64,000 nt of DNA, taken from Minisyncoccota bacterium. GTDB lineage: Bacteria > Patescibacteriota > Minisyncoccia > Phycocordibacterales > UBA9973. Of the stretch, positions 4,614-48,592 are shown piece by piece (the first letter of the stretch is position 1; each line of letters starts with the position of its first letter). The notes under the pieces are model-generated. The model was given only the letters and a program-made list of their open reading frames with translations. It was not told the DNA's origin and did not search any database. The translations under genes were made by a program, and so were the position numbers. The DNA lies in the NCBI GenBank assembly GCA_041658325.1, contig JBBAAI010000003.1, positions 2,201 through 66,200 on the forward strand, given 5' to 3'.

Positions 4614-6293
4614 ATGGAAAAGATTTTACGAATTTTTACTAAAGAATCTGGAAGCATAAATCAAGCCGCTCTTCTTTTAGGTTGTCTGACTTTTTTATCT
4701 CAAATTTTAGCGCTTTTTCGTGATCGTTCTTTTGCTCACTTTATAGGACCATCTCCCGCGCTCGATGCTTATTATGCGGCTTTTCGAGTTCCAGATTTGA
4801 TTTTTATTTCTATAGCATCGCTTGCTTCTATCACAGTGATAATTCCTTTTATCGTCGCTAAGATGGATGGGGACAAGGTGACGCCTGAAGCACGGAAATA
4901 TTTGAATGATATTTTTACAGTTTTCTTTTCTTTAATGGTTTTAGTCGCGCTTATCGCTTTTTTTCTTATGCCGTATTTAACAAATTTTATTGCTCCAGGG
5001 TTTACGCCGTTTTATCAAGCAAAAGTGATTTTACTTTCGCGGATAATGTTGCTTTCGCCGATTTTAATGGGACTTTCAAATCTTTTCGGCACGGTTACTC
5101 AACTTTTCCGTAAATTTTTTATTTATTCTTTAAGTCCAATTTTTTATAATCTAGGAATTATTGTTGGAGTAATATTTTTTTATCCAATTTTTGGAATTTC
5201 TGGTTTAGCAATGGGAGTGGCGCTCGGCGCTCTGATGCATTTTGGAATACAGGCATTAGCTTCACACGGATGTGGTTTTACACCCAAATTTTCATTTTCT
5301 ATTAATTTCAAAGATATAAAAAACGTGGCCTTAACTTCTCTTCCTCGCACATTAGGTCTCGCTTTTAATAACATTTCTCTTATTTTTATAATAGCTCTAG
5401 CTTCCTTTTTAAAGAGTGGTTCTATCTCAGTATTTAATTTTGCGTTTAATCTGCAGTCGGTTCCATTAAATATTATTGGTATATCTTATGCCGTAGCGGC
5501 TTTCCCGACTTTAGCTAAAGCTTTCAGTAATGGCAAAAAAGAGGAATTTAAAAAACACCTAAAAGAAGCTTCTAGGGCAATAGTCTTTTGGTCTTTGCCG
5601 GTGATTTTTCTTTTTATTGTTCTTCGAGCGCAGATCGTTCGTGTTATTCTTGGCTCTGGAACTTTTTCTTGGGATAATACTCGTTTAGTCGCGGCTGGTC
5701 TTGCGATTTTTTCTGTTTCTATTCTTGCTCAAGGAATGATCACTTTGTTATCTCGTTCTTATTATGCTACTGGGAATACCAAGCGTCCACTTATTGTAAA
5801 TTTCTCCTCTTCCATTTTAATAATAATTTTATCTTTTATTTTTATTCGTCTTTTTGAAAATTGGAACTTTTTCCGATATTTTATAGAGTCTTTGCTAAAG
5901 GTGGGGGATATCGCTGGAACAGAAGTATTAATGCTTCCACTTGCATATTCCATAGGAACTATTTTAAATTTTGCGCTACTTTGGATTTTTGTAAAAAAAG
6001 ATTTTATGCCCAATGAGCTTTTTATCACTAAGACTTTTTTCCAAAGTCTGGGCGCGTCATTTTTTTTAGGGCTCATCACTTATTTAAGTCTGAACGTTCT
6101 TTCCCCAGTCTTTGGTACAACTACTTTTTGGGGTGTATTTCTCCAGGGTTTTATTTCTGGGATTTTGGGGATAGCTTCCGCCATTGTGGTTTTATTTTTG
6201 TTAAAGAGTGAAGAGTTAGATGATATTATAAAAACCCTAAAGACCAAATTTTGGCGCGCAAAAATTATTGCTCCTTCTCAAGAAGAACTTTAA
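4614..6293 (+). CDS. murJ: Lipid II flippase MurJ (MviN family)
   Basis: 559 aa, 14 predicted TM helices, N-terminal LLGCLTFLSQILALFRDRSFAHFIG...AFRVPDLIF typical of MurJ. Confidence 0.8.
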   Translation: MEKILRIFTKESGSINQAALLLGCLTFLSQILALFRDRSFAHFIGPSPALDAYYAAFRVPDLIFISIASLASITVIIPFIVAKMDGDKVTPEARKYLNDIFTVFFSLMVLVALIAFFLMPYLTNFIAPGFTPFYQAKVILLSRIMLLSPILMGLSNLFGTVTQLFRKFFIYSLSPIFYNLGIIVGVIFFYPIFGISGLAMGVALGALMHFGIQALASHGCGFTPKFSFSINFKDIKNVALTSLPRTLGLAFNNISLIFIIALASFLKSGSISVFNFAFNLQSVPLNIIGISYAVAAFPTLAKAFSNGKKEEFKKHLKEASRAIVFWSLPVIFLFIVLRAQIVRVILGSGTFSWDNTRLVAAGLAIFSVSILAQGMITLLSRSYYATGNTKRPLIVNFSSSILIIILSFIFIRLFENWNFFRYFIESLLKVGDIAGTEVLMLPLAYSIGTILNFALLWIFVKKDFMPNELFITKTFFQSLGASFFLGLITYLSLNVLSPVFGTTTFWGVFLQGFISGILGIASAIVVLFLLKSEELDDIIKTLKTKFWRAKIIAPSQEEL

Positions 6294-6406: not shown

Positions 6407-8407
6407 ATGCTAGAAAAAAAAAGCAGATCAAAATTAATTCTATTTAGGTTTTTTATTGTTGTCTTGTTGTTGTTTTTTGGCACTAAATTAGTTTTTGCAT
6501 CTGAAACAAATGGAATAATTGACGGAAATTATAAATACGCTTGGGGTGAAAATATTGGTTGGATTAATTTTGGTTGTGATAATTGCAATGTTAATGTTAC
6601 CGATGATGGTCTTTCGGGATATGCTTGGAGTACACAATATGGTTGGATAAATTTAGATCCAACTACTTCGGGAGTTCAAAATAACGGGCAAGGACTGCTC
6701 TCTGGTTATGCTTGGAGTCCAAATCTTGGTTGGATTAATTTTAACGGAGTTACGATATCCTCTAATGGATATTTTTTAGGTTATGCAACGATAGAATCTG
6801 ATAGTAGCCAAATTAATTTTAATTGCACCAATGCAGATTCTTGTAGTGGGGCAGATTTTAAAGTAAAAACTGATTGGAAACCAGCCAGCGCTAGACAGTC
6901 AGGAGGTAGTGGGGCTGGAGGTTCTGGTTTCCCTGTACCGCCAAATCCACCACCCGTCGTTCCTCCCACCATTCCTCCTGTTGTTCCACCAACAATTGTA
7001 AATGTAGTGGTGGATAATATCTCAGAAACCATAAATTCTATTTCTGATTCTTTTTTTAATTTATTTCAACCACAAAATAAACCTGAAAATACAATAGTTG
7101 AGATTCCTAAAATAGCGCCACTTTCATTAAAGGTGTTGTGGAATCTTTTGCCCAGAAAAGCCATAAAAGAATTTGTCTTTGCGCCGTTGCCATACGAAGT
7201 CCGTGTACTAGCTTCTAAATTTCCAGAACTCGACAGAACACTCAAAAGTGTCGGCATAAAAAGATTAACTGATATGAGTAAATTAAGTGGGGTAACTCTC
7301 AACCTTCCCGGACTTACGGAACTTACCAACACACTTAGAAATGTTGGGGCAGAAAGATTGGCTGGGGTAGATAAATTAAATAGCGTAAATTTCGATATTC
7401 CCGGGCTTTCTAATTTAGATGAAAAAATGGTAAATAATATTGGTGTAAACATAGGTACAGGGAAAATTTCCCTTATAAAAGGATTGCCGTTAACAAAATT
7501 TTCTCTGCTGGAAAAGAAAAACCTACCATCCGAATTCGTATTTGCTCGAACGAATGGTGAGCTTATTGATTTGAATGTAGCGATGTCAGTTAGTGAAAAA
7601 GGGGAAGTAACTCAAAAAATATCTTCTTTACCTGGCAAGACATTACGATTTGTGGTAAAGCCGATCAGCAAAGCTAGAAGCGTAACTGGTTATTTTATAT
7701 TTAAATCGGCCACACCTAAAATCACACAAAATCAAATTCCTCGATCTTCTCTCACTGCCTCGGCGCTATTTTCAATGAGTGGCTTAGTTGAAAAAACTTC
7801 CAAGTCTGTTCCCGTGGAAAATAAATTAGTGCTTTCTTCGTTTGAATACACTGACCTAGATCACGACGGAATATACACGGCTGACGTTGTTTCTCCTTCA
7901 GTGCCCGGTGAATATGAAGTTATCACTGTCATTGATTATTTAGATCCAGTACTCGGGGCTCGCCAAATGAGAATGATAACCGTTATTGACCCAGAAGGAT
8001 ATGTTTTTGAAAAAAATAACGGCAAAGAGACTCGTATTCCGTCAGCTATTATATCTCTTTATTCATTAAATAATTTAACTAAAAAATATGAGCTTTGGGT
8101 CGCGAAAGATTATCAACAGGAAAACCCGCAAATAACAGACGTTAGGGGAACTTATTCGTTTTTAGTGCCAGAAGGTTCCTATTATTTCCAGATAGAGGCA
8201 CCAGGCTATGATTTTTATCAAGGAAAAGCATTTGTTGTCGTAGAGGGAAGTGGAATCCACCAAAACATAGAATTAAAATCCAGCCGAGGGTGGTTTTCTG
8301 TATTTGACTGGAAAACCGTTCTTTTGATTGTCGTGTTATTATTATTAGTGTATAATTTATATCGTAATACCCTGCGAGATAAATTATTAAAATTTTCAAA
8401 CAAATGA
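6407..8407 (+). CDS. Secreted/anchored repeat protein (signal peptide, three Y-A-W-x-x-x-G-W-I-N-F/L repeats, Pro-rich linker, C-terminal TM anchor)
   Basis: N-terminal hydrophobic signal (FFIVVLLLFFGTKLVFA), repeats YAWGENIGWINF / YAWSTQYGWINL / YAWSPNLGWINF, PVPPNPPPVVPPTIPPVVPPTIV linker, C-terminal helix VLLIVVLLLLVY then basic tail; stop overlaps next start (ATGATGA). Confidence 0.5.
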   Translation: MLEKKSRSKLILFRFFIVVLLLFFGTKLVFASETNGIIDGNYKYAWGENIGWINFGCDNCNVNVTDDGLSGYAWSTQYGWINLDPTTSGVQNNGQGLLSGYAWSPNLGWINFNGVTISSNGYFLGYATIESDSSQINFNCTNADSCSGADFKVKTDWKPASARQSGGSGAGGSGFPVPPNPPPVVPPTIPPVVPPTIVNVVVDNISETINSISDSFFNLFQPQNKPENTIVEIPKIAPLSLKVLWNLLPRKAIKEFVFAPLPYEVRVLASKFPELDRTLKSVGIKRLTDMSKLSGVTLNLPGLTELTNTLRNVGAERLAGVDKLNSVNFDIPGLSNLDEKMVNNIGVNIGTGKISLIKGLPLTKFSLLEKKNLPSEFVFARTNGELIDLNVAMSVSEKGEVTQKISSLPGKTLRFVVKPISKARSVTGYFIFKSATPKITQNQIPRSSLTASALFSMSGLVEKTSKSVPVENKLVLSSFEYTDLDHDGIYTADVVSPSVPGEYEVITVIDYLDPVLGARQMRMITVIDPEGYVFEKNNGKETRIPSAIISLYSLNNLTKKYELWVAKDYQQENPQITDVRGTYSFLVPEGSYYFQIEAPGYDFYQGKAFVVVEGSGIHQNIELKSSRGWFSVFDWKTVLLIVVLLLLVYNLYRNTLRDKLLKFSNK

Positions 8408-35871: not shown

Positions 35872-37035
35872 CTATGGCATTAGTTGTTTTAAACTTGATT
35901 TTACTATATTTTTTAACTCTTTTAAAATATTTTTTAAAGAGCTTTCGGAGTAATCCGCTCCATTTTTGCCAGAGGTTAAAAGACCTAGTGCGGTGAAATA
36001 AGATGAATCACGAAGTTTGGTTTTAGTATTACCGAAAATCTCAGTCGTTCCGATACTTGAAGGAAGTTTTAAAATAGATTTTGATAATTCTATCAGACCT
36101 GGTATATTAGCACCGCCACCCACAAACACTATTCCTGCTGGTAAAAGTTCTGATCTTTTTATTTTTTTTAAATTATTTTCTATCGATTCAAAAATATCAC
36201 AAAGACGTGCCTCGATTATTTCATTAAGTTTTTTCTTTGAAAATTCTTCTCCAACATTTCCAAACTTTAAATCTTCCGCTTTTTCTAATGGGATTTTAAA
36301 TCCCAAAGCAATATCATTAGTAATATCTGAAGAACCAATTGAAAAAGTATAAATTGATACCAATAATCCATTTTCAAAAACAGAAATAGATGTGGTTTGA
36401 TCTCCGATGTTTACTAAAGCTACCCCGACGATTTTTTGTTTTTCAGATAAAACAAGATTATTGATAGCTATCGGGGAAGCTATTACATTGATAGTTTCTA
36501 CTCCAGCTTCTGCGATGACTTCAAGTAAATCTTCTAGATGAACAATAGAATAAGTAATAAAAAGGGCTTTAGCTTCAAGCTTGGTTCCGCGCATTCCTTC
36601 TAGTCTGCCCAATATTTCTTTTCCATCGAGTCGAAAGGAAATAGGGTACGTGTGAATAATTTTCTTATTACCTAAACTCAAATTATCTTCACAATTTTGT
36701 AGTGCTTTACCGATATCTAGGTTTGTTACCTCACCATCAGCCTTAGAGATAATTGTTCCACCAGAACTCATTTCTCCTCGCAGGGTTGTTCCAGAAAGTG
36801 AGACAAAAGCACGTTTTATTTTTATACCAGAAGACTTTTCTGCTTGAGCAACAGCATTTTTTATTGAAGTTTTAGCAAGATCTGAATTTACGACATAGCC
36901 ATGTCTAAGTCCGAGTGTGGTATTTTCACCCATGCCAATAACTCTAGGATTTTTTTCTCCTTTTAGAAATTCTCCGACCACGACTCGCGTCATGGACGAT
37001 CCCACATCTATCCCGACAGAAATATTTCTTATCAT
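35872..37035 (-). CDS. ftsA: Cell division protein FtsA
   Basis: 387 aa actin-like ATPase (ISVGIDVGSSMTRVVVGE, DIGDQTTSISVF, GIVFVGGGANIPGL). Confidence 0.85.
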   Translation of the reverse strand: MIRNISVGIDVGSSMTRVVVGEFLKGEKNPRVIGMGENTTLGLRHGYVVNSDLAKTSIKNAVAQAEKSSGIKIKRAFVSLSGTTLRGEMSSGGTIISKADGEVTNLDIGKALQNCEDNLSLGNKKIIHTYPISFRLDGKEILGRLEGMRGTKLEAKALFITYSIVHLEDLLEVIAEAGVETINVIASPIAINNLVLSEKQKIVGVALVNIGDQTTSISVFENGLLVSIYTFSIGSSDITNDIALGFKIPLEKAEDLKFGNVGEEFSKKKLNEIIEARLCDIFESIENNLKKIKRSELLPAGIVFVGGGANIPGLIELSKSILKLPSSIGTTEIFGNTKTKLRDSSYFTALGLLTSGKNGADYSESSLKNILKELKNIVKSSLKQLMP

Positions 37036-38220: not shown

Positions 38221-39675
38221 ATGTCTTCAATTGATGAAATTAGGGACGCTAGAATAAAAAAACTTAAACTCTTGCAAGACAAGGGGATAAATCCATATCC
38301 AGCAGAATCAAAAAGAGAAATTTCTCTTAAAATAGCTGTTGATGATTTTGAAAATTTAGAGAAAGATAAAGAAATAAAATGGATTGCTGGTAGAGTAATG
38401 TCTATTCGTGGACAAGGCGCAATCATTTTTATCACTCTCAACGATGGAACTGAGATTTTTCAAGGATTACTAAAAAAGGATGTTATCGGTGATGAGAAGC
38501 TTAGTTTTTGGAATGAAGTCGTTGACATCGGAGACTTTGTTGAAGTGCAAGGAACTTTTTTAAAAACTAATAGGGGAGAAAAAACAACAGAAATAAAAGA
38601 TTGGCGCATGCTCGCAAAGAGCTTGAGCCCGTTGCCAGAAAAATGGCATGGTCTAGTAGACGCAGAAGAACGATTTAGAAAACGTTATTTAGATATTTTG
38701 ATGAATCCTGAGATTAAAGATACTTTTGAAAAAAAGGCGAAATTTTGGGAGACTACAAGGAATTTTTTGAAAGATAAAGGATTTTTAGAAGTAGAAACAC
38801 CGACACTTGAGGTTACTACTGGTGGAGCAGAAGCTAGACCATTTAAAACTCATCACAATGATTTTGATATTGATGTTTTTATGAGAATATCGGTCGGAGA
38901 ACTTTGGCAAAAGAGATTAATGGCGGCTGGATTTCCTAAAACTTTTGAGATCGGAAGGGTTTATAGAAACGAAGGAGGAAGCGCTGAACATCTACAGGAA
39001 TTCACTAATATGGAATTCTACGCTTCTTATATGAACATCAAAAAAGGAAAGAAATTAGTTAGAGATTTGTATATAAAAATAGCGAATGAAGTTTTTGGAA
39101 AAACTGAATTTGAAACCAGGGGACATAAATTTGATTTAGCTTCTGATTGGCAGGAGATAGATTATGTGGAAGAAATAAAAAAACAAACCGGTATTGATGT
39201 GCTTGAAGACGGAGAAGAAAAAATGGAACAAACTCTTAAAAAACTGGGTGTGGAATTTGAAGGGGAAAATAGAGAAAGAATGACTGATTCTCTTTGGAAA
39301 TATTGTCGAAAAAATATTACAGGTCCAGCATATCTTGTGAATCATCCGAAACTTGTCGCTCCGCTTTCCAAGGAAAATGCAAAAGACAAGAGAAAGACTG
39401 AAACGTTTCAAGTTATTCTCGCTGGAAGTGAGATGGGTAGAGCACATGCAGAATTAAATGATCCAATTGACCAAGAAAAAAGATTTAATGAACAAAAAAA
39501 ACTGATTGAAAAAGGGGATGAAGAAGCGATGATGCCGGACTCAGAATTTGTGGAAATGCTTGAATACGGAATGCCCCCGTGTTTCGGTTTCGGTTTTGGA
39601 GAAAGATTGTTTGCTTTTCTTGTAGATAAACCAGTCCGCGAAACACAACTATTTCCATTAATGCGTCCAAAATAA
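38221..39675 (+). CDS. lysS: Lysyl-tRNA synthetase (class II)
   Basis: 484 aa; N-terminal OB anticodon-binding domain, class II motifs (FEIGRVYRNEG, GFGFGERL); greA-lysS adjacency is common. Confidence 0.85.
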   Translation: MSSIDEIRDARIKKLKLLQDKGINPYPAESKREISLKIAVDDFENLEKDKEIKWIAGRVMSIRGQGAIIFITLNDGTEIFQGLLKKDVIGDEKLSFWNEVVDIGDFVEVQGTFLKTNRGEKTTEIKDWRMLAKSLSPLPEKWHGLVDAEERFRKRYLDILMNPEIKDTFEKKAKFWETTRNFLKDKGFLEVETPTLEVTTGGAEARPFKTHHNDFDIDVFMRISVGELWQKRLMAAGFPKTFEIGRVYRNEGGSAEHLQEFTNMEFYASYMNIKKGKKLVRDLYIKIANEVFGKTEFETRGHKFDLASDWQEIDYVEEIKKQTGIDVLEDGEEKMEQTLKKLGVEFEGENRERMTDSLWKYCRKNITGPAYLVNHPKLVAPLSKENAKDKRKTETFQVILAGSEMGRAHAELNDPIDQEKRFNEQKKLIEKGDEEAMMPDSEFVEMLEYGMPPCFGFGFGERLFAFLVDKPVRETQLFPLMRPK

Positions 39676-39700
39676 AATTAAAATAATATAGAAAGTTTAA

Positions 39701-39741
39701 GGCCCCTGTTGCTCATGCAACCAGGGGCCCCTCGATTTTGA
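39701..39741. terminator. Rho-independent terminator after lysS; on the opposite strand also closes the small-peptide operon
   Basis: GGCCCCTGttgctcatgcaaCCAGGGGCC then ctcgattttgattc. Confidence 0.6.
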
Positions 39742-39742
39742 T

Positions 39743-39874
39743 TCATATTCCTCCGTCTCCGCACCCACAATCGCCGTCGGGTTTATCGTGGTTTTCTTCT
39801 CGTTTCTTGGGAAACCAACTTATCAGGAATATTGCGACAATAGCCCCCGAAAACACGAATATTTCTAGTAACAT
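39743..39874 (-). CDS. Small single-TM peptide 4 (43 aa, MLLEIFVFSGAIVAIFLISWFPKKREENHDKPDGDCGCGDGGI)
   Basis: Hand-translated; below ORF-track size cutoff; SD AGGGGTGA 6 nt upstream of ATG; hydrophobic helix then charged, Cys/Gly/Asp-rich tail. Confidence 0.45.
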   Translation of the reverse strand: MLLEIFVFSGAIVAIFLISWFPKKREENHDKPDGDCGCGDGGI

Positions 39875-39883
39875 CGTCACCCC

Positions 39884-39991
39884 CTATGATTTTCCGCTGC
39901 TTGCGGCTTTTATATAAGCACGAAAGCAAACGAACATGATAATCCCTACAACAATCACAATTCCTGCCGGGATTATTAACCATAGCGGCAT
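39884..39991 (-). CDS. Small single-TM peptide 3 (35 aa, MPLWLIIPAGIVIVVGIIMFVCFRAYIKAASSGKS)
   Basis: Hand-translated; SD AAAGGGGG upstream of ATG; 9-nt spacer to next gene. Confidence 0.45.
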   Translation of the reverse strand: MPLWLIIPAGIVIVVGIIMFVCFRAYIKAASSGKS

Positions 39992-40004
39992 GTGTAACCC
40001 CCTT

Positions 40005-40124
40005 TCAGTTTATTGGAGGATTAATCGCAATCGTCCGGTTCTGTTTTTTTTTGAAAAGTGTCCTACACAGAAGGACGAAGCATGCGAAGAGCACAACACC
40101 GATGACCAACAGAACTTTTCCCAT
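40005..40124 (-). CDS. Small single-TM peptide 2 (39 aa, MGKVLLVIGVVLFACFVLLCRTLFKKKQNRTIAINPPIN)
   Basis: Hand-translated; SD AAAGGAGA 6 nt upstream of ATG. Confidence 0.45.
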   Translation of the reverse strand: MGKVLLVIGVVLFACFVLLCRTLFKKKQNRTIAINPPIN

Positions 40125-40142
40125 GAGGTTTCTCCTTTGGGT

Positions 40143-40262
40143 TTATCCTTGAGAGCTCTTTTCTTTTGTAGCCAAGAACCATGCAAGGAGAAGTAAAATT
40201 ACCACAACAACCGCCTTCACTATGTTTATAAGAACAACCCATCCTTCTTCTTTGGGTACCAT
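40143..40262 (-). CDS. Small single-TM peptide 1 (39 aa, MVPKEEGWVVLINIVKAVVVVILLLLAWFLATKEKSSQG)
   Basis: Hand-translated; SD GGAGGTGA 6 nt upstream of ATG; first gene of the unit. Confidence 0.45.
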   Translation of the reverse strand: MVPKEEGWVVLINIVKAVVVVILLLLAWFLATKEKSSQG

Positions 40263-40297
40263 TTTCACCTCCATTTATGAGAAGTTTATCCACCTTA

Positions 40298-40326
40298 AAT
40301 ATAACATATTAAACGACCCAAGTCAA
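40298..40326 (-). promoter_or_regulatory. sigma70-type promoter TTGACT-17-TATATT driving the four-peptide operon
   Basis: minus strand ttgact(40326-40321) tgggtcgtttaatatgt tatatt(40303-40298); about 28 nt to the SD and ATG at 40262. Confidence 0.5.
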
Positions 40327-40350
40327 TTTTAACAGATGAGAGTTTTCCTC

Positions 40351-40391
40351 CAAAAACAATAATTCCCCGAAATGCAAATCTGCACTCGGGG
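40351..40391 (-). terminator. Rho-independent terminator after the 74-aa gene
   Basis: minus strand CCCCGAGTGCAGATTTGCATTTCGGGG then aattattgttttt. Confidence 0.55.
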
Positions 40392-40420
40392 AGTTTTCAA
40401 TTCTCTAGATAAAGAATATC

Positions 40421-40645
40421 CTATTTTTCGATAGACACCACTATCACGCCGAAACCTCTTCTGATTAATTCGTCGACGAACTTTGGTGGTATTTTGATGT
40501 GTCCCGGACGGTCGCTTGAACTGTAAGTAATGACCTTGGTTTCTTCATCGTGGCTCGAAGTTTTTTCGATGATCTTCTTGATTGTGTCAAAGGAACTTTT
40601 CTTCGGCCAATAGGTAATCCGAACAAACGCCTTTCCTGTTTTCAT
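40421..40645 (-). CDS. Small hypothetical protein (74 aa), paralogue of the 68-aa neighbour
   Basis: Strong SD (AGGAGGG) before ATG; N-terminal motif FVRITYWPKK shared with neighbour (KRIHITEWPPK); C-terminal GHIKIPPKFVDELIRRGFGVIVV. Confidence 0.55.
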   Translation of the reverse strand: MKTGKAFVRITYWPKKSSFDTIKKIIEKTSSHDEETKVITYSSSDRPGHIKIPPKFVDELIRRGFGVIVVSIEK

Positions 40646-40663
40646 AATACATGCCCTCCTTTC

Positions 40664-40870
40664 CTAGGCGAGTAACTCGAATTTGAATCCTGCACCGGTG
40701 ATTTTTTTAGGATCCAACTTCTCCTTCCAGTTAGGAACATAAATAGTCTCTGGCCGAAGACCTGCGGTGTTGGGAAAAACGAACCTTCCTAAAGCTGTTC
40801 CAACATCCTCGACCGCTGTTTTGGGCGGCCATTCTGTAATATGGATTCTTTTTACTCTCTCTTTTTTCAT
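40664..40870 (-). CDS. Small hypothetical protein (68 aa), paralogue of the 74-aa neighbour
   Basis: Strong SD (GGAGGAGGTG) before ATG; possible TTGACT-17-CATATT promoter upstream. Confidence 0.55.
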   Translation of the reverse strand: MKKERVKRIHITEWPPKTAVEDVGTALGRFVFPNTAGLRPETIYVPNWKEKLDPKKITGAGFKFELLA

Positions 40871-41000
40871 CGAACACCTCCTCCATTAAGTAATATGTCA
40901 TATTTATGAGCTTTAGTCAATAAATTATCGCCCGAATTAGAAGGGGAGTTATCCACAGTTTATGCTTGGTATTACTGTTGAATTTGGAATATAATATATC

Positions 41001-41020
41001 AAGTGGGAAAAAGTGGGAAA
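41001..41020 (+). promoter_or_regulatory. Tandem MraZ-box-like direct repeats (AAGTGGGAAA x2, 10-bp phasing) just upstream of mraZ
   Basis: aagtgggaaa aagtgggaaa read directly; GTGGG repeats at helical spacing are the known MraZ operator architecture; TATAAT-like box at 40990-40995. Confidence 0.5.
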
Positions 41021-41046
41021 TTAAAAAAAGAGTAAAAATAAATTTT

Positions 41047-41493
41047 ATGTTGATCGGCGAATACATACACACAATAGATGAAAAAAATCGTATTTCAATG
41101 CCGGTAAAATTTCGAAAAGAAATGGGCAAGAAAATTATTATTACTCCTGGATTAGATTCTTGTTTGTTTATTTTCACAATTAAAGAATGGATAAAGGTTA
41201 GTAAAAGACTTTCTGATAATAATAATGACCTTTCTTTTTTAAAAGCTGATCAAAGAAGTTTTAATAGATATATGTTTGGACGAGCCGCAGAAGTAGAGAT
41301 AGATTCTATCGGAAGAATATTAATCCCAGATTTTTTGAAAGACAGAATTGGACTTAAAGACAAAGCAGCGATTATCGGAGTAGAGGATAGGGTGGAGGTT
41401 TGGAATGACAAAGTATGGTTGCAAAATCAAGAAGTTGTAGAGAAGCAAGCAGGAGAGTTAGCAGAAAAGCTTGGTAATGAGAAGACCAAATAA
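41047..41493 (+). CDS. mraZ: Transcriptional regulator MraZ
   Basis: Duplicated SpoVT/AbrB-like halves, MLIGEYIHTIDEKNRISMPVKFR ... FGRAAEVEIDSIGRILIPDFLK; ORF-track start 40966 trimmed to the first conserved Met. Confidence 0.85.
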   Translation: MLIGEYIHTIDEKNRISMPVKFRKEMGKKIIITPGLDSCLFIFTIKEWIKVSKRLSDNNNDLSFLKADQRSFNRYMFGRAAEVEIDSIGRILIPDFLKDRIGLKDKAAIIGVEDRVEVWNDKVWLQNQEVVEKQAGELAEKLGNEKTK

Positions 41494-48046: not shown

Positions 48047-48457
48047 ATGTGGCTAACCGTAGAAAAGGCAAGACATCTTCGCCGCGGAATCCTGGAAATC
48101 GTGTTTATTGAAAAGTGTTGCATGTTTTTGGGCAAAATTGAAGATGAAGAGGTTGTTGTCACTGACGGCAAGCTCTCCATCAAGATTGCGCTTCAAGAAC
48201 ACAAACAGCTCAAGGGGGTAAGAAAGGACTTAACCCCAACACCGTCGGAATATGTGGTGGGTCGACCCATTGAGCTCGAGATCGATTTGACTGTTTTTTC
48301 CGTCGAAAACCTCGGACCTTCTTCTGGTGAGGTGGGCGGAGGAGACAGGATTTTCATTATCTCACCAGATACCAAAAAAGTATTCATCTTCTACCCAGCG
48401 AGTGACATTCGGGAAGAAGAGTATCTCTTGAACGAACCTTCCGTTGCCAACATGTGA
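48047..48457 (+). CDS. Hypothetical protein (136 aa) in GC-rich, SD-bearing island
   Basis: Strong SD + ATG; no recognisable family from sequence; terminator hairpin GAACCTTCCG...CGGAGGGTTC + T7 overlaps the stop. Confidence 0.45.
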   Translation: MWLTVEKARHLRRGILEIVFIEKCCMFLGKIEDEEVVVTDGKLSIKIALQEHKQLKGVRKDLTPTPSEYVVGRPIELEIDLTVFSVENLGPSSGEVGGGDRIFIISPDTKKVFIFYPASDIREEEYLLNEPSVANM

Positions 48458-48476: not shown

Positions 48477-48520
48477 CCTATTTGTGAACTAATCATGACA
48501 TTTGCAAAAGTTTCATTTTG

Positions 48521-48592
48521 TGACCCTACCGGGAATCGAACCCGAATTTAATCCTTGAGAAGGATCCGTCCTAACCGTTAGACGATAGGGCC
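48521..48592 (-). tRNA. tRNA-Glu (anticodon CTC)
   Basis: Reverse complement GGCCCTATCGTCTAACGGTTAGGAC GGATCC-TTCTCAA-GGATT ... T arm CCGGG-TTCGATT-CCCGG; near-identical backbone to the tRNA-Glu(TTC) at 31.8 kb. Confidence 0.8.

Follow-up and report, generated by a model that had tools for sequence, protein, structure and literature searches.

The 1.2-kb islet lying between lysS and mraZ on the minus strand of contig JBBAAI010000003.1, within a stretch of 64,000 nucleotides (hereafter, the window) from an uncultured Candidatus Paceibacterota/Nomurabacteria genome of the Candidate Phyla Radiation (CPR), is genuinely protein-coding, ordinary-looking as it is. It comprises two operons, one for two small proteins (p68 and p74) of a family named here WPxK, the other for four bitopic micro-proteins (pepA to pepD), and it is best explained, with a confidence slightly better than even, as a set of accessory genes housed in a hypervariable slot, the WPxK pair being joined there by four young, lineage-specific membrane peptides. 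According to this explanation, the islet lies opposite to the mraZ promoter, and its two operons would be driven by a strong extended -10 promoter that is present twice; the first would supply a duplicated pair of a family restricted to Nomurabacteria, which in one subclade would form the slot's stable core, and the second four unrelated bitopic micro-proteins, probably young accessory genes limited to this lineage, while in sister species zero to two different peptides, upstream or downstream of the WPxK gene, would be co-transcribed with it. The peptides might serve in the membrane as small modulators or anchors, under a regulation shared with the cytosolic WPxK proteins, which might also bind them, and the module would be dispensable and adaptive, not housekeeping. 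What is new is the orphan WPxK family, previously undescribed, together with the unannotated micro-proteins, and a new kind of system is not indicated; at present the locus amounts to hypothetical genes, well supported, and not to a new mechanism.

Two operons between lysS and mraZ

From the lysS stop codon at 39675 to the mraZ start codon at 41047, both on the plus strand, the gap measures 1371 bp, and on its minus strand six tightly packed open reading frames (ORFs) form two co-oriented operons, p68-p74 and pepA-pepD. The features, in the direction in which the islet would be transcribed, are the following (SD, Shine-Dalgarno sequence; TM, transmembrane; pI, isoelectric point):

40949..40957, plus strand: TTATCCACA, a perfect DnaA-box consensus at the right-hand boundary of the islet, present in 65/79 related loci, cassette or not
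40892..40920, minus strand: promoter P1 of the p68-p74 operon, TTGACT-17-CATATT, scoring 9/12 with TG in a consensus scan
40664..40870, minus strand: p68, 68 aa, basic (pI 9.8), SD GGAGGAGGTG at 40884-40875; NCBI hypothetical protein WC870_02760
40421..40645, minus strand: p74, 74 aa, basic, SD AAGGAGG 9 nt upstream; NCBI hypothetical protein WC870_02755
40351..40392, minus strand: terminator-like hairpin (stem-loop 40392-40364) downstream of p74, then the U-rich run UUAUUGUUUUU
40298..40326, minus strand: promoter P2 of the peptide operon, TTGACT-17-TATATT with TG, 10/12, the top match of the region
40143..40262, minus strand: pepA, 39 aa, single TM segment, SD GGAGGTG, pI 8.2
40005..40124, minus strand: pepB, 39 aa, single TM segment, KKKQNR tail, SD AAGGAG, pI 10.5; unannotated
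39884..39991, minus strand: pepC, 35 aa, single TM segment, basic tail, SD AAGGGGGT, pI 9.8; unannotated
39743..39874, minus strand: pepD, 43 aa, single TM segment, KKREENHDKPDGDCGCGDGG tail, SD AGGGGGTGA, pI 4.6; unannotated
39699..39731, both strands: G+C-rich, bidirectional terminator-like hairpin common to the convergent lysS and peptide operons

Each operon is bracketed by a promoter-like site and a stable hairpin. The -35 box of P1, TTGACT, lies at 40920-40915 and its TG-extended -10 box, TGaCATATT, at 40900-40892; the same element, ATTGACTAA...AATATGnCATATT, precedes the WPxK operon in L088, L085, L004, L005, L003 and L030 (L-numbers designate the related contigs or loci compared, P-numbers the proteins obtained from database searches), and P2, which aligns with P1 and with the orthologues of P1, is, judged by this alignment, a paralogous second copy of P1. 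The two hairpins were overlooked by a simple terminator scan and were found by RNA folding with z-scores against shuffled sequences: the one after p74 has a minimum free energy of -24.3 kcal/mol over an 81-nt stretch (centroid of the hairpin alone -18.3, z = -3.0), and the one shared with lysS reaches -24.6 and -24.5 kcal/mol on the two strands (z = -3.6 and -4.0). All six ORFs are preceded, at a distance of 3-9 nt, by a AGGAGGTGA-like SD, which is exact for p68, p74, pepA and pepB and carries one mismatch in pepC and pepD. The islet also differs in composition from its surroundings, with a sliding-window GC content of 0.42-0.49 against 0.28-0.37 in the flanks and a GC content at third codon positions (GC3) of 0.35-0.52 in its six genes against 0.27 +/- 0.05 in 48 genes of the window.

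Most of this architecture had been proposed in the original prediction, made from the sequence letters and a list of ORFs: the six minus-strand ORFs in two units, the higher GC content, a promoter and a terminator for each unit, the bidirectional nature of the lysS terminator and the spacers of 9-18 nt within the peptide array (measured as 18, 13 and 9 nt) were all recovered. The SD proposed for the peptides, a GGAGG-type sequence 6 nt from each ATG, holds only approximately, its exact form and spacing being more variable than supposed.

GC-rich intergenic regions of AT-rich genomes are often structured RNAs, and the local GC excess would also suit a structured non-coding RNA occupying this stretch. 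Such a reading is barely credible: Rfam gave no match in the islet even at E <= 1, a scan of the whole window returned tRNAs elsewhere only, and the structured-RNA reading is therefore unsupported. Notable folding is restricted to the two terminator hairpins, SD-led peptide ORFs cover 492 of the 532 nt of the peptide stretch (92%), and p68 is conserved as a protein (tblastn 1e-24).

The WPxK family and its slot

Compared directly, p68 and p74 share a BLAST match of 15 residues only; in a family alignment both carry the invariant W-P-x-K, V, R-P and G-F positions, and a profile built without the window sequences retrieves p68 at E = 1.7e-24 and p74 at E = 1e-4, the latter over its N-terminal 31 positions only. 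AlphaFold (AF2) models, with mean predicted local distance difference test (pLDDT) values of 75 for p68 and 82.5 for p74, show the same predicted beta-alpha-beta-alpha-beta order. From the common invariant positions, the profile match and the shared predicted topology, the two are therefore judged to be divergent paralogues, in agreement with the pairing originally proposed for them. The family to which they belong was defined here as proteins encoded in the lysS-mraZ gap on the opposite strand, 63-76 aa long and conserving W-P-x-K after beta1, R/H-P before beta2 and G-F/Y ahead of the final strand, and both proteins show all of these characters. WPxK proteins are predicted to be cytosolic and to adopt a ferredoxin-like, RRM-like fold; the nearest known fold class is the heavy-metal-associated (HMA)/ferredoxin-like class of Atx1, CopZ and Ccc2a, whose order is beta-alpha-beta-beta-alpha-beta and not the beta-alpha-beta-alpha-beta predicted here, and WPxK proteins have neither the GMxCxxC metal motif in the beta1-alpha1 loop nor a Pfam match to the HMA domain (PF00403). 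All ten members considered are basic (pI 9.0-10.1), which is compatible with binding to nucleic acids or to the membrane surface and is, in a Lys-rich proteome, weak evidence for either.

The family is apparently rare. None of the six islet products has a match in Pfam, NCBIfam, PADLOC, PHROGs, solved structures or viral collections, the original prediction, too, having recognised no known family for the arrangement; their PADLOC and PHROGs matches are no better than E = 0.013 and are all on TM segments. In the family-profile searches, 10 related products likewise gave nothing above threshold. In a word-indexed search of 5.8 billion proteins p68 and p74 each matched only themselves, and the family alignment used as query brought the total to four proteins, i.e., added two. 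An exhaustive profile search of 1.84 billion representative proteins yielded five credible small members (P0002, P0004, P0005, P0009 and P0010), the other matches being a few repeat-protein artefacts; about eight lineages carry the family among these representatives, and no homologue was found in them outside the Nomurabacteria clade. A metagenome scan for relatives recovered the L004 lineage again and no other, and viral contigs and phage records contained none. Two further candidates are unproven. In L067, a 94-aa minus-strand ORF (~6603-6884) with a TM helix at its end shows through its middle part a weak similarity, 11.8 bits and not significant, to the profile of WPxK in its C-terminal half; it could be a fusion of the soluble domain with a membrane anchor. 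In the gap of L021, an ORF of 79 aa that scores lower still (8.3 bits, not significant) could be a further member.

The genomic position of the WPxK genes is far more constant than their sequence. At all loci with a readable context, namely in the window and in L003, L004, L005, L030, L088 and L085, WPxK is flanked by mraZ and lysS and is oriented against the two; the contig of P0009 has the same arrangement of called genes (flanking genes not identified), with a called 37-aa gene downstream. Among the window, L003, L004, L005 and L088, LysS is 84-87% and MraZ 84-93% identical, while WPxK proteins share 31-58% (54-58% for p68 against its L004, L005 and L088 homologues, all located at this junction); when the divergent L030 is included, WPxK identity to its member is 18-38% and the LysS range becomes 68-87%. 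The pairwise identities are star-like for WPxK and likewise for LysS, and this pattern, the common location and the rapid divergence fit better with a resident gene of a Nomurabacteria subclade, probably inherited in place and diverging several-fold faster than its neighbours, than with a recent insertion.

Horizontal acquisition had been favoured by the original prediction, which described the islet as an insert and as a candidate for a horizontally acquired system and asked whether related genomes lack it. A cassette recently received from a GC-richer donor would indeed account for GC and GC3 values clearly exceeding those of the host; the gap is moreover a variable hotspot of 138-2677 bp with differing cargo, WPxK is absent from L006, L008 and L043 despite 80-84% LysS identity, and a recombination patch of lysS lies about 400 nt from the cassette when L083 is compared with L004. 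Against this, the closest relatives carry a WPxK gene in the same place: in at least six sister lineages (LysS 84-87%) a member of the family is found on this strand, at this position and behind this promoter, and a further, divergent locus at the same junction has LysS ~70% identical. No mobile-element hallmark was found around the islet, neither tRNA nor integrase nor flanking direct repeats, viral and phage records contain no relatives, plasmid-like relatives were not found either, the identities are star-like as for LysS, and the absence of homologues outside the clade among the 1.84 billion representatives therefore leaves no visible donor. A recent insertion is, on balance, improbable. 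As candidate causes of the GC3 excess, either a foreign ancestry of WPxK as a whole or a recombination hotspot subject to biased gene conversion may be considered; the highly expressed L25 gene shows no raised GC3 (0.24).

What appears to be maintained over a broader range is the slot itself. Synteny of lysS and mraZ is kept in about 70 of 80 related genomes, and the cargo differs from species to species in nearly every case: besides WPxK genes, it includes other small membrane proteins (L010, L012, L018, L020, L046, L067), Cys-rich small proteins (L006, L030, L054), a HicB-like ORF (L010) and IS200/RayT-like 'PNHFH' ORFs (L017, L035, L047). On the mraZ side, the region 40940-41025 (plus strand) is near-invariant across ~79 Nomurabacteria loci; TTATCCACA is located ~20 nt upstream of the mraZ -35/-10 pair GTGGTTTATAAT, which is followed at 41001-41020 by a pair of AAGTGGGAAA repeats, spaced by 10 nt and resembling MraZ boxes. 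The DnaA box was considered as a feature of the cassette and rejected as such, being part of the mraZ promoter regardless of cargo. Beside it, a minus-strand TTGAC box is retained in many loci, and a conserved divergent promoter, driving whichever cargo occupies the slot, is therefore suggested.

Two minor observations concern the slot and its borders. A one-mismatch copy of the DnaA box, TTATCCACC, occurs at 40286-40294, in the 5' untranslated region of the peptide operon. Between L004 (positions 5886-6052) and L083, two contigs otherwise identical, 24 of 25 differences are concentrated in ~170 nt of the 3' half of lysS and none falls in the cassette; most of them have AT in L083 where L004 has GC, and the patch looks like a recombination tract adjoining the slot.

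Four predicted membrane peptides and their possible origin

The second operon is, in terms of annotation, almost invisible: only pepA is annotated, in a 43-aa form starting from the upstream ATG at 40274 (WC870_02750), whereas pepB, pepC and pepD are in no annotation, being absent both from a collection of 15 billion proteins and from the gene calls; for pepD an alternative GTG start is available at 39880. In each of the four peptides an unbroken hydrophobic core, 17-24 residues long and with a mean Kyte-Doolittle hydropathy of 2.7-3.3 (3.1 for the 17-mer of pepA; grand average of hydropathy of the peptides up to 1.5), is followed by basic residues, so that the hydrophobic helix with a short charged tail described in the original prediction is confirmed. 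The basic cluster is C-terminal to the helix in 4/4 cases, and the position of these juxtamembrane residues suggests that the peptides would be inserted in the cytoplasmic membrane with the N-terminus out and the C-terminus in.

Whether these frames are genes at all has to be weighed against the possibility that only p68, p74 and perhaps pepA are, the rest being untranslated chance frames, remnants of a membrane gene or functionless proto-genes. Gene callers did pass over pepB, pepC and pepD, no peptide sequence is conserved in loci with 84-87% LysS identity, and TM-rich products are typical of de novo ORFs (PMC7005711); moreover, a second TM ORF of L004 that has no stop codon suggests a turnover by birth and death. 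Yet in 5000 dinucleotide-preserving shuffles of the 532-nt stretch four non-overlapping ORFs of at least 30 aa were never obtained, the maximum being three (67 shuffles), and of the six SD-led ATG ORFs of 25-60 aa with a TM-like stretch found on both strands of the 64-kb window, four are pepA-D; the shuffle test and this clustering of small ORFs (sORFs) therefore exclude a chance origin of the array. Every SD has at most one mismatch and is properly spaced, and the peptides have a promoter copy and a terminator dedicated to them. As for a degraded polytopic gene, the loops of such a protein would alternate between the two sides of the membrane, while the basic tails always follow the helix; four independent peptides with the N-terminus out are therefore predicted instead of a fragmented protein, and this candidate was rejected, the charge topology arguing against it and the scores of the concatenated peptides falling below every Pfam cut-off. 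Taken as a whole, the reading of the peptides as by-products is distinctly improbable, and the earlier proposal of undescribed small-protein genes stands, these being real-looking, densely packed, SD-led and devoid of family matches.

Analogous genes, different in sequence, accompany WPxK in sister loci. The WPxK operon of L003 contains an SD-led single-TM ORF upstream (45 aa) and another downstream (39 aa), that of L005 a 42-aa TM ORF upstream and, downstream, one of 54 aa whose tail contains Cys, and that of L004 one downstream SD-led TM ORF of 30 aa; the number of TM peptides per WPxK locus ranges from zero to four. The peptide stretch is not alignable between species, and what is conserved across the WPxK loci is, on sequence comparison, the kind of gene and not the peptide sequence; the earlier expectation that the four frames might be kept in homologous loci was not borne out, only analogous SD-led TM peptides being found there. 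A possible orthology of pepD with peptides of L018 and L005, based on a common KKR-EENH or Cys tail, was not significant. Nor does tandem duplication explain the array: no DNA tandem repeat exists beyond short repeats in the SD regions, and pairwise similarities of pepA-D are not significant (z <= 3.1, segment-preserving shuffles).

A plausible origin, by analogy, is de novo birth. In the case described by Vakirlis et al. (2020, PMC7005711), young, lineage-specific, single-TM micro-proteins emerge from transcribed non-genic sequence, and the complete turnover of single-TM products between sister species is similar here; unlike that case, which concerns yeast and T-rich sequence, the present stretch is GC-enriched, with a near-consensus SD for each ORF and tight operon packing. 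De novo birth may thus have produced the peptides, and alone it gives no account of four near-consensus SDs in tight tandem.

Several observations weigh against the explanation of the islet as a WPxK core with young accessory peptides. No orthologue of pepA-D is detectable in related slots, including those of loci with 84-87% LysS identity, and no paralogue either; L088, with two WPxK paralogues, and L085, with one, have no peptide, and a physical partnership is unproven. The raised GC3 is seen again in every lineage, well above the host genes, and simple vertical descent gives no account of it. Finally, identity is 100% among the three contigs available for the window lineage, leaving no variation on which selection on the peptide ORFs could be measured, and in the L004 lineage 11 contigs have one and the same cassette, the recombination patch inside lysS being their sole difference.

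Some further sORFs deserve mention. In L004, from 6620 downstream on the minus strand, the second SD-led TM ORF (MDTFDIVMYLLLVIGVLMVIK...) has no stop before the terminator hairpin and continues antisense into lysS; it is identical in 11 contigs and is possibly a small ORF in decay or of the non-stop type. The two other SD-led ORFs of the window with a TM-like stretch, at 18115-18008 (minus strand, 35 aa, MLFNKKHQKKIQVAWAVVSVLIIVSMILLYSPIFR) and 35874-35996 (plus strand, 40 aa), are possible further unannotated micro-proteins.

Comparison with known systems

Small bitopic membrane micro-proteins such as AcrZ, MgtS, CydX and KdpF are encoded by sORFs in bacteria and are usually missed by annotation. 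pepA-D resemble this class in their size of 30-50 aa, N-terminal TM helix, short basic cytosolic tail and SD of their own, and depart from it in that four unrelated peptides share one dedicated operon, which is unusual there. A second likeness is to the FeoB-associated Cys-rich membrane proteins (PF12669): pepD has a Cys/Gly-rich tail and pepB matches weakly over its TM and Lys-rich part. The scores, 15.1 bits for pepB and 17 for the concatenated peptides, are however well below the cut-off of 27, pepD itself gives no match, and neither feoB nor a gene for any other partner complex is found among the called genes within 6 kb, where ftsZ, ftsA, ybeY, greA, lysS, mraZ, rsmH and genes for a penicillin-binding protein, a Mur ligase and a PRTase are located.

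The main functional rival is a role in conflict, in which the TM peptides would be membrane-damaging toxins, bacteriocin-like products or immunity peptides and the WPxK proteins their cytosolic antidotes or partners, as in toxin-antitoxin, abortive-infection or leaderless bacteriocin-like systems. Some properties of the locus are of the kind expected: WPxK is fast-evolving, patchy, tandem-duplicated in the window and in L088 and atypical in composition, and the slot elsewhere holds HicB-like and IS200/RayT-like ORFs. Type I toxins (Fst, TisB, Hok, Ldr, BsrG) are the products of single genes whose translation is restrained and which are paired with an antisense RNA; pepA-D are like them in size, in the single hydrophobic helix and in the charged C-terminal tail, and unlike them in being four peptides behind a near-consensus promoter with strong SDs. 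The promoter scan showed no plus-strand promoter-like site facing the peptide ORFs and Rfam gave no antitoxin RNA, although sequence alone is no proof that an antisense RNA is absent.

The four tandem, SD-led sORFs also recall the leaderless multi-peptide bacteriocins, namely aureocin A70 (AurA-D), garvicin KS and the cereucins, in which three to four tandem sORFs encode peptides with no leader (PMC6131525); in both cases the sORFs are unannotated and roughly 30-45 aa long, and each has its own start. The peptides of those bacteriocins are mutually homologous, 30-34 aa long, amphipathic and strongly cationic (pI about 11, net charge +4 to +5), and their genes adjoin conserved transporter or immunity genes (PMC6131525). 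By contrast, pepA-D are mutually dissimilar, have pI values of 8.2, 10.5, 9.8 and 4.6, are not uniformly cationic or amphipathic and possess classical, unbroken TM cores, and no ABC transporter, immunity gene or regulator is present among the called genes within 6 kb. Moreover, no PADLOC, PHROG, Pfam or NCBIfam match points to a conflict system, the peptides have their own strong promoter and SDs, a terminator separates them from p68 and p74, and WPxK genes also stand alone. For the likeness to toxins or to bacteriocin and immunity genes put forward in the original prediction no positive evidence was thus obtained, and the conflict reading is considered rather unlikely.

Going beyond the explanation by accessory genes, WPxK proteins and their variable arrays of bitopic peptides might constitute an unrecognised, Nomurabacteria-specific two-part system of small proteins, which might tune envelope growth or division, or the contact of these episymbionts with host cells. 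In such a system the conserved promoter would stand back-to-back with the promoter of mraZ and the division and cell wall (dcw) cluster across the common TTATCCACA element, and the slot would be a nursery in which membrane micro-proteins newly arise and are tried behind a strong promoter; this extension is improbable. Should the module be tied to the adjacent division-cluster promoter, it could hint at a lineage-specific control of the envelope in not-yet-culturable organisms. The locus is of interest also in that small proteins are the least-charted part of CPR/Patescibacteria proteomes. It exemplifies an 'expression slot' (lysS, divergent promoter, mraZ) that is itself conserved and has its cargo replaced between species, a fast-evolving orphan family limited to one subclade and co-transcribed membrane micro-proteins that turn over completely from one sister species to the next; provided that the peptides are translated, young genes for bacterial membrane proteins could be studied here in a tractable case.

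Elsewhere in the window, two regions call for a brief remark. An orphan ORF of 136 aa at 48047-48457 (plus strand), with no Pfam match, is compositionally atypical (GC 0.46; GC3 0.51, the window maximum) and adjoins a tRNA-Glu(ctc) at 48520-48592. Between 37400 and 37720, GC skew and gene orientation both flip, with ftsA and ybeY on the minus strand to the left and greA, lysS and the dcw genes on the plus strand to the right; this change of sign could be a simple strand-switch effect or a replication landmark.

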